A stretch of 63,990 bases of DNA, filler included, from Pachysolen tannophilus NRRL Y-2460 (Eukaryota), in NCBI GenBank assembly GCA_001661245.1. It is 29 parts of 29 records of this genome, joined end to end, with 100 filler letters (N's around TTAATTAATTAA, not from the genome) between each part and the next. Parts side by side here need not be neighbours in the genome. Positions count along the whole stretch, not along the records: positions 23,672 to 25,873 come from KV454031.1; 28 more parts are not named here. One strand, given 5' to 3'. Positions within the stretch are counted from its first letter, which is position 1, and each line of letters opens with the position of its first letter. The notes below the pieces were generated by a model, which saw nothing but the letters and a program-made list of their open reading frames with translations, was not told where the DNA came from and ran no database searches. The position numbers and the translations under genes are program-made. This document shows, piece after piece, positions 24,007-25,401 of the stretch.

Positions 24007-25401
24007 ATGAGAAAGTGTAAAGTATTTGTTGGTAATTCTCATCCTGAATTGGGAAAATTGGTATGTGAGAGGTTAGGTATTGAACCTGCACCTTGTAGGT
24101 TGAAAAAATTTGCTAATGGGGAAACATCAGTTCAAATTGATGTTTCTGTGAGAGATGAAGATGTTTATATTATTCAAAGTAGTTCACCAGATATTAATGA
24201 TCATATTATGGAACTTTTAATACTTATTAGTGCTTGTAAAGGTGGATCTGCTGCAAAAATTACAGCAGTAATTCCAATGTTTCCTTATTCTAAACAATCA
24301 AAAATGAAAAAACATAGAGGTGCTATAACTGCTAGAATGTTGGCAAATTTATTAATTATGGCAGGGGCCGATCACGTGGTTTCGATGGATTTACATGCTT
24401 CTCAAATGCAAGGTTTTTTCTCAAAACCTGTTGATAATTTATATGGAGCACCAACTTTAGCAAAATGGTTGAAATTGAATTTACCAGATTATAAAAATGC
24501 AGTTGTTGTTTCTAAAAATCCAGGTGGAACAAAAAGAGTTACAGCTTTAGCAGATTCATTAAAGATAAATTTTGCTATGATTCATACTGATCGTAGAAGA
24601 GCAAAAGATGGTTATAAAATGAAAAAAAATAGATTAAAATCTAATCAACTGCAACAAAAAGTGGTGGTTGTAGATAATAAAGGAAGTTCAAAAACAGAAA
24701 ATAGTGATGGTGAAGAAGAAGATGAAAATATTATTATAACAAATGAATTACAAACTGCTAGAATTGTTAGAGGTCATGTTGTTGAAGATGATGATATCAC
24801 TTTTGCTCCTTCACTGACTACATCTACAACTTCTTTAATTACTCATGGAACTGATTCTGCATCAACATCAATTTCAGGAAATGGTATACATCCTTCAATA
24901 CTGGGAAGAAAATTAAGTACAAATTTAAATGGTATTAGTTCAACAGATATGTCAACTTTACATAATAGTAGCTCAAGTAATTTCCATGAATCAAATTCTG
25001 ATGATGATGATGAACCAGATGTATTAGCTCAAGAAAAATTGATTACATTAGTTGGAGATGTTCAAAACAAACCAGCAATAATATTAGATGATATGGTTGA
25101 TAAACCAACTTCTTTTATCTCTGCTGCAGAACATTTAAGATTAAACTGTGGTGCAAATGCAGTATATATCGTGGCTACTCATGGTGTATTTTCATCTGAT
25201 TGTTTAGAGAGTTTGGAAAATTGTAAATTCATTGATAAAATTGTTGTTACCAATACTTATCCTATTAGTAAAGAACAACGCGCAAAACTGAAAAAATTGG
25301 TTGTAATCGATGTTAGTCCAATTTTTGCAGAATGCATAAGAAGAGATCATTTCGGAGAATCTATTAGTGTTTTGTTTAATTCATTAGCCGCCATTGAGTA
25401 A
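24007..25401 (+). CDS. PRS1: Ribose-phosphate pyrophosphokinase, Prs1 type with non-homologous insertion
   Basis: MRKCKVFVGNSHPELG start, SMDLHASQMQGFF, IRRDHFGESISVLF. Confidence 0.93.
   Translation: MRKCKVFVGNSHPELGKLVCERLGIEPAPCRLKKFANGETSVQIDVSVRDEDVYIIQSSSPDINDHIMELLILISACKGGSAAKITAVIPMFPYSKQSKMKKHRGAITARMLANLLIMAGADHVVSMDLHASQMQGFFSKPVDNLYGAPTLAKWLKLNLPDYKNAVVVSKNPGGTKRVTALADSLKINFAMIHTDRRRAKDGYKMKKNRLKSNQLQQKVVVVDNKGSSKTENSDGEEEDENIIITNELQTARIVRGHVVEDDDITFAPSLTTSTTSLITHGTDSASTSISGNGIHPSILGRKLSTNLNGISSTDMSTLHNSSSSNFHESNSDDDDEPDVLAQEKLITLVGDVQNKPAIILDDMVDKPTSFISAAEHLRLNCGANAVYIVATHGVFSSDCLESLENCKFIDKIVVTNTYPISKEQRAKLKKLVVIDVSPIFAECIRRDHFGESISVLFNSLAAIE

Follow-up and report, generated by a model that had tools for sequence, protein, structure and literature searches.

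CTG codons in a Pachysolen tannophilus window do not behave as leucine codons and are most probably read as alanine

The PRS1 gene and its CTG codons

We analysed a stretch of 63,990 nucleotides, filler included, from the genome of Pachysolen tannophilus NRRL Y-2460, which is referred to below as the window. It contains an ORF for a PRPP synthetase subunit, PRS1, in which four CTG codons are found.

24007..25401, plus strand: PRS1 ORF of 464 codons, uninterrupted, with CTG at codons 215, 270, 299 and 428; encodes a PRPP synthetase subunit that carries a long non-homologous insert
24649..24651, plus strand: CTG codon 215, within 51 nt dropped by the public gene model
24814..24816, plus strand: CTG codon 270, context PS[CTG]TTSTTS, in the variable insert; Ala in the public record P0001
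24901..24903, plus strand: CTG codon 299; 119 of 120 alignment rows are gaps here and the sole residue is the Ala of P0001
25288..25290, plus strand: CTG codon 428, in frame, context ...EQRAK[CTG]KKLVVIDVSPIFAEC

Pfam recognized PF13793 at residues 5-120 (1.5e-43) and PF14572 at residues 329-457 (4.9e-39). Human PRPS1 (2h06) matched the ORF with an E value of 3.1e-92 in two aligned blocks, residues 3-202 and 346-462, which flank the long insert, and the PRS1-like proteins retrieved by a protein collection search carry the name PRS1. Judged from its domains, the ORF is a Prs1-type PRPP synthetase, whose N- and C-terminal domains are parted by a long non-homologous insert. This agrees with the first-pass annotation of this DNA, which had named the gene Prs1. 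The two CTG contexts that it had pointed out are also present as described: GCA AAA CTG AAA AAA TTG occupies 25282-25299, with its CTG as codon 428, and the Ser/Thr run PS[CTG]TTSTTS contains codon 270 of the same gene.

The top match of the ORF was PACTADRAFT_51294 (P0001) of P. tannophilus NRRL Y-2460 (E 1.4e-280), and the second match was 69% identical. Every residue of the ORF agrees with this public protein except residues 202-218, 17 in all, which are missing from the public model. At the three CTG sites that the model retains (270, 299 and 428), it has Ala in all three. The missing residues correspond to an "intron" of 51 nt, 24611..24661 on the plus strand, which begins with GT, ends with AG, is in frame and includes CTG codon 215. 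Its translation, G-Y-K-M-K-K..., can be aligned with the motif D-G/D/A-Y/F-x-x-K-K of the orthologues shown. Because of this alignment with the D-G-Y/F-x-x-K-K motif, 24611-24661 is probably coding, and the public intron was probably predicted in error. Contigs of two sequencing runs of unspecified type (X2 and X4) cover PRS1 unspliced, with no differences and no joint; these runs may be the assembly's own source. Runs X1 and X3 yielded no contigs covering PRS1.

Three further genes of the window carry CTG codons that could be compared with orthologues.

37268..38584, plus strand: COR1 ORF, cytochrome bc1 core subunit 1; CTG codons 7, 181 and 435 start at 37286, 37808 and 38570
6296..7867, minus strand: ACH1 ORF, acetyl-CoA hydrolase/transferase; CTG codon 102 at 7562-7564
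62621..63436, minus strand: REX2-type oligoribonuclease ORF; CTG codons 176 and 262 start at 62909 and 62651

The REX2 ORF has 271 codons, and the public protein P0245 has 186 amino acids and starts at an internal Met. The N-terminal extension of 85 residues is basic; it might serve as a mitochondrial presequence or else be untranslated.

CTG was rare in the window. We counted 54 CTG codons, distributed over 15 of 25 ORFs, and the other 10 ORFs had none. This count leaves out three overlapping ORFs (28782-29159, 29406-30053 and 57002-57466) of the 28 listed. Half of the CTG codons, 27 of 54, lie in two low-complexity genes. One is a Wor1-like gene with a Gti1/Pac2 domain by Pfam (28580..30271, plus strand), which has 17 CTG codons, including five consecutive ones (29681-29695) directly after a poly-Gln tract. 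Under NCBI translation table 26 (CTG as Ala), this tract reads Q(n)-AAAAA-Q-A-Q, that is, Gln-Ala low complexity and not poly-Leu. The other, at 25922-27583 on the minus strand, is rich in Gln, Ser, Ala and Gly, has no Pfam match and carries 10 CTG codons. Incidentally, between 3083 and 62463 the window contains 28 pairs of 44-N runs, with 12 bases between the runs of each pair. The spacing of these pairs falls steadily from ~3040 to ~1860 bases; they are clearly artificial masking and not assembly gaps, and they break some ORFs, for instance the end of 25922-27583.

Orthologue columns and domain scores at CTG

The first-pass annotation had read CUG as Ser, on the grounds that the CTG at 25288-25290 stands at a conserved Ser of Prs1. 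We aligned the PRS1 ORF with its best 120 matches, and column 428 contained N 33, S 32, C 32, K 4, A 3, T 3, L 2 and others. Residues were distributed by family: among these 120 best matches, Ser was found in 15 of the 16 named Saccharomycetaceae/Saccharomycodaceae and Cys in all 11 named Pichiaceae s.l., and the Ser1-clade matches were mixed (N 3, S 2, K 2, L 2, others). Cys is also the residue of human PRPS1 at this column, in the alignment to 2h06. The named matches were assigned to clades by us, following general yeast taxonomy. On this alignment, column 428 is a variable small-residue position and not a conserved Ser, and the Ser on which the earlier reading was founded is specific to one family.

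The S. cerevisiae Prs1 protein was absent among the 120 best matches. The first-pass annotation gives it Ser at the CTG site, which is compatible with the family pattern among the matches listed, ...S-SKKLV.IDVSPIFAEC. Since Ser at this column is the Saccharomycetaceae/Saccharomycodaceae state, anyone comparing with S. cerevisiae alone would inevitably arrive at Ser. This stands as a caution on method, as a single column set against a single distant species gave the wrong amino acid. The Pichiaceae s.l. genera, which constitute the Leu2 clade of PMC5951914, are grouped nearest to the Ala clade in that study.

We then considered the columns of all four genes. PRS1, COR1 and REX2 were each aligned with their best 120 matches, and ACH1 with its best 150 representatives under a faster MAFFT setting. 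These alignments cover 10 of the 54 CTG codons; of the other 44, 27 belong to the two low-complexity genes. Column statistics were computed on nine alignable CTG columns, from which the organism's own records P0001 and P0245 and the gap-only column PRS1 299 were excluded. Besides PRS1 428, the columns were as follows.

PRS1 215: R 43, S 23, A 13, L 1 of 112
PRS1 270: D 17, E 14, A 11 (10 without P0001), S 11, L 0
COR1 7: V 56, I 26, L 18, F 13, A 2
COR1 181: R 77, S 21, A 5, L 1
COR1 435: M 110, L 6, A 2, S 1 of 120
REX2 176: A 34, E 32, N 13, S 7, L 1 of 119
REX2 262: D 49, E 19, G 14, S 2, A 0, L 0
ACH1 102: K 35, R 17, A 15, S 4, L 0 of 98

The mean share of Leu over the nine columns was 2.7%, as against 56.6% at the 130 columns of other Leu codons in the same alignments. 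Ser and Ala had mean shares of 9.9% and 8.4% at the CTG columns; in the same alignments, Ser made up 41.6% at 140 Ser columns and Ala 55.8% at 111 Ala columns. Ala was the commonest residue in one of the nine CTG columns (REX2 176) and Ser in none. Summed per-column log-likelihoods were -45.0 bits for Ser, -46.8 for Ala and -50.3 for Leu, which put Ser ahead of Ala by 1.7 bits.

Domain scores gave a second measure. ORFs were translated with tables 1 (Leu), 12 (Ser) and 26 (Ala), and Pfam bit scores were compared for the seven domain rows whose match spans a CTG.

AcetylCoA_hydro: Leu 186.2, Ser 188.3, Ala 187.2
Pribosyl_synth: Leu 134.6, Ser 136.4, Ala 136.0
Pribosyltran: Leu 30.4, Ser 31.6, Ala 32.4
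DnaJ: Leu 74.9, Ser 76.3, Ala 76.0
Peptidase_M16_C: Leu 97.3, Ser 100.3, Ala 100.5
RNase_T: Leu 120.9, Ser 121.7, Ala 122.2
Gti1_Pac2: Leu 192.0, Ser 192.3, Ala 192.2
Total: Leu 836.3, Ser 846.9, Ala 846.5

Leu scored lowest in all seven rows, with a total deficit of ~10 bits, and the gap between Ser and Ala amounted to 0.4 bits over the seven rows. Because Leu is so scarce at the CTG columns relative to the control columns, and because it scores lowest in every domain row, CTG does not behave as a Leu codon in the window, as far as alignments and domain models can tell. Leu calls at CTG in a standard translation are accordingly wrong, a point on which the first-pass annotation was right.

A reading in which CTG keeps its standard meaning, and in which the non-Leu columns reflect chance at variable positions, would still account for part of the picture. 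Among the nine columns, COR1 7 and COR1 435 are hydrophobic and best fitted by Leu, which runs counter to a clean picture: COR1 codon 7 is Leu in the four nearest relatives, within the motif RRF-L-STS, and COR1 435 is occupied by M/L. Leu-like contexts such as ELL[CTG]YISKY and DSL[CTG]SS also occur. Yet the column controls, the uniformly lowest domain scores, the identity of the organism and the proteomics published for it (PMC4937558, considered below) all oppose standard Leu, which we regard as exceedingly improbable.

The two COR1 codons, at 37286-37288 (codon 7) and 38570-38572 (codon 435), may be sites where substitution by Ala is tolerated, or may descend from ancestral CTG-Leu codons. 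It is conceivable, if unlikely, that a few CTG codons of the window such as these were retained from the ancestral CUG-Leu codons and have since changed in meaning to Ala, as opposed to having arisen anew. In the tRNA-loss-driven model of codon reassignment, all CUG codons are lost before reassignment. Conservation of CTG at hydrophobic columns across Nakazawaea, Peterozyma and the Leu2 clade would thus bear on that model.

The same data gave a slight lean towards Ser. It was the best of the three readings on both columns and domain totals, it has a family-specific foothold at column 428, and several CTG codons sit within Ser-rich runs (PS[CTG]TTSTTS, GS[CTG]SSASS and F[CTG]SSSAA). Leads of 1.7 bits over nine columns and 0.4 bits over seven domains are negligible, however, and judged from columns and Pfam scores, the window does not separate Ser from Ala. 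The first-pass annotation had put forward an alignment of CTG positions with orthologues as a check: in the 10 CTG codons and four genes covered, the columns were not mainly Leu, and Ser was not singled out from Ala. The misreading as Ser is understandable, since window alignments alone leave the two unseparated with a slight lean to Ser. Collectively, the nine columns and the domain scores reject Leu yet leave both Ser and Ala, and the choice between these calls for the tRNA, proteomics or the identity of the organism.

Alanine as the meaning of CUG in Pachysolen

In the NCBI taxonomy, P. tannophilus belongs to the Pichiomycetes, order Alaninales, family Pachysolenaceae. The organism of the window thus lies inside the Ala clade and outside both the CUG-Ser1 clade (Debaryomycetaceae/Metschnikowiaceae/Babjeviella) and the CUG-Ser2 clade. 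The Ser1-clade PRS1 matches were 63-69% identical to the PRS1 of the window. Krassowski et al. (Nat Commun 2018; PMC5951914) unite Pachysolen, Nakazawaea and Peterozyma in an "Ala clade", apart from the Ser1 and Ser2 clades, and credit the discovery to two reports of 2016.

One of the papers on this code, by Mühlhausen et al. (Genome Res 2016; PMC4937558), used strain NRRL Y-2460, the same as here. There, LC-MS/MS identified Ala at 97.2% of 907 CUG positions with full fragment-ion support. The single tRNA(CAG) is reported there to cluster with alanine tRNAs, to possess G3:U70 and A73, and to lack the extended variable arm typical of Ser and Leu tRNAs; its identity to the GCN-decoding tRNAs is given as <=77%.

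We looked up the exact sequences of the ACH1, COR1 and REX2 translations under tables 26, 12 and 1 in NCBI/UniRef. For ACH1 and COR1, the table-26 translations have exact entries, and the table-12 and table-1 translations have none. No exact entry was found there for the REX2 ORF translation under any of the three tables, which is explained by the internal start Met of the public REX2 model, P0245. In P0245, CTG codons 176 and 262 both correspond to Ala. Such public records reflect the depositors' choice of translation and are not evidence of decoding in the cell.

The identity of the strain and the work published on it decide between Ser and Ala. Reading CTG as Ser, which Candida and Debaryomyces do by means of a tRNA-Ser(CAG) (table 12), would have to hold in a yeast that stands outside both CUG-Ser clades, whose tRNA(CAG) is described without a Ser-type arm, whose peptides were reported with Ala and whose own public proteins carry Ala at CTG. 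We consider it very unlikely, and the table-12 claim of the first-pass annotation is not supported. Because of the identity of the organism, and because of the published LC-MS/MS and tRNA-Ala(CAG) of the same strain, we prefer Ala over Ser: the window is that of a CUG-Ala clade budding yeast, P. tannophilus, in which nuclear CUG is almost certainly decoded as Ala by an anticodon-mutated tRNA-Ala(CAG), following table 26. By this genome-wide rule, PRS1 codon 428 is most likely Ala, giving ...EQRAKAKKLVVIDVS..., and the other 53 CTG codons of the window ORFs would likewise be Ala.

A third possibility was that CUG is ambiguous, being read mostly as Ala with a meaningful minority of Leu or Ser, much like the stochastic decoding of Ascoidea asiatica. 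The two hydrophobic CTG columns of COR1 would suit such a reading, as would two minorities among the 907 positions of PMC4937558: 8 where Ala occurs beside another residue and 18 with a non-Ala residue. The same paper gives a similar deviation rate at AUG, however, and its authors see no more ambiguity in CUG than in AUG. Ambiguous decoding therefore appears extremely improbable, and unambiguous decoding as Ala remains the reading that we favour.

The steps published for this change are as follows. A duplicated tRNA-Ala gained the anticodon CAG. The alanyl-tRNA synthetase reads the acceptor stem, with its G3:U70 pair, and not the anticodon; the tRNA with the CAG anticodon is therefore still charged with Ala, and Ala is inserted at CUG. 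Searching the window with ARAGORN and Rfam did not find a tRNA(CAG), and detected only a tRNA-Ala(UGC) and a tRNA-Asn(GUU). The tRNA-Ala(UGC), at 49862-49934 on the plus strand, begins with GGGC and ends with ...GTCCA, which fits the G3:U70 and A73 alanine identity elements named by PMC4937558; it is not the CUG decoder.

For annotation, this means that every CTG of the window should be translated as Ala (table 26) and that both table 1 (Leu) and table 12 (Ser) give wrong residues, which concerns 54 residues in 15 ORFs. The reassignment of CUG to Ala in Pachysolen is already known and has been in print since 2016; it is biologically remarkable all the same.

Comparison with known CUG reassignments

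The window can be set beside three known systems. With the CUG-Ser2 yeasts (Ascoidea, Saccharomycopsis), it shares a change of CUG within the budding yeasts (PMC6041473, PMC5951914). The difference lies in the decoding, as Ascoidea asiatica has two competing tRNAs and inserts Ser or Leu stochastically, whereas Pachysolen is reported as unambiguous in PMC4937558.

The likeness is closer with the CUG-Ser1 yeasts (Candida, Debaryomyces, Babjeviella; table 12). There too, budding yeasts have reassigned this codon from Leu, use it rarely and carry it at polar variable columns. Two differences separate them from the present case. Here the amino acid would be Ala, brought by a tRNA-Ala, instead of Ser brought by a tRNA-Ser (PMC4937558), and the clade is another one, in which the reassignment is described as independent (PMC4937558, PMC5951914). 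In PMC5951914, the three CUG changes of the budding yeasts are said to have arisen in parallel.

Lastly, the window may be compared with the table 26 system described for Pachysolen itself. PMC4937558 speaks of CUG at "mainly conserved alanine positions". In the small sample of the window, in contrast, CTG was mostly found at variable columns and not at conserved Ala columns. Other features are shared: the organism is the same, its public proteins have Ala at CTG, CTG lies off the Leu columns, and the codon is rare (54 in 25 ORFs, with none in 10 of them). There is no difference in kind.
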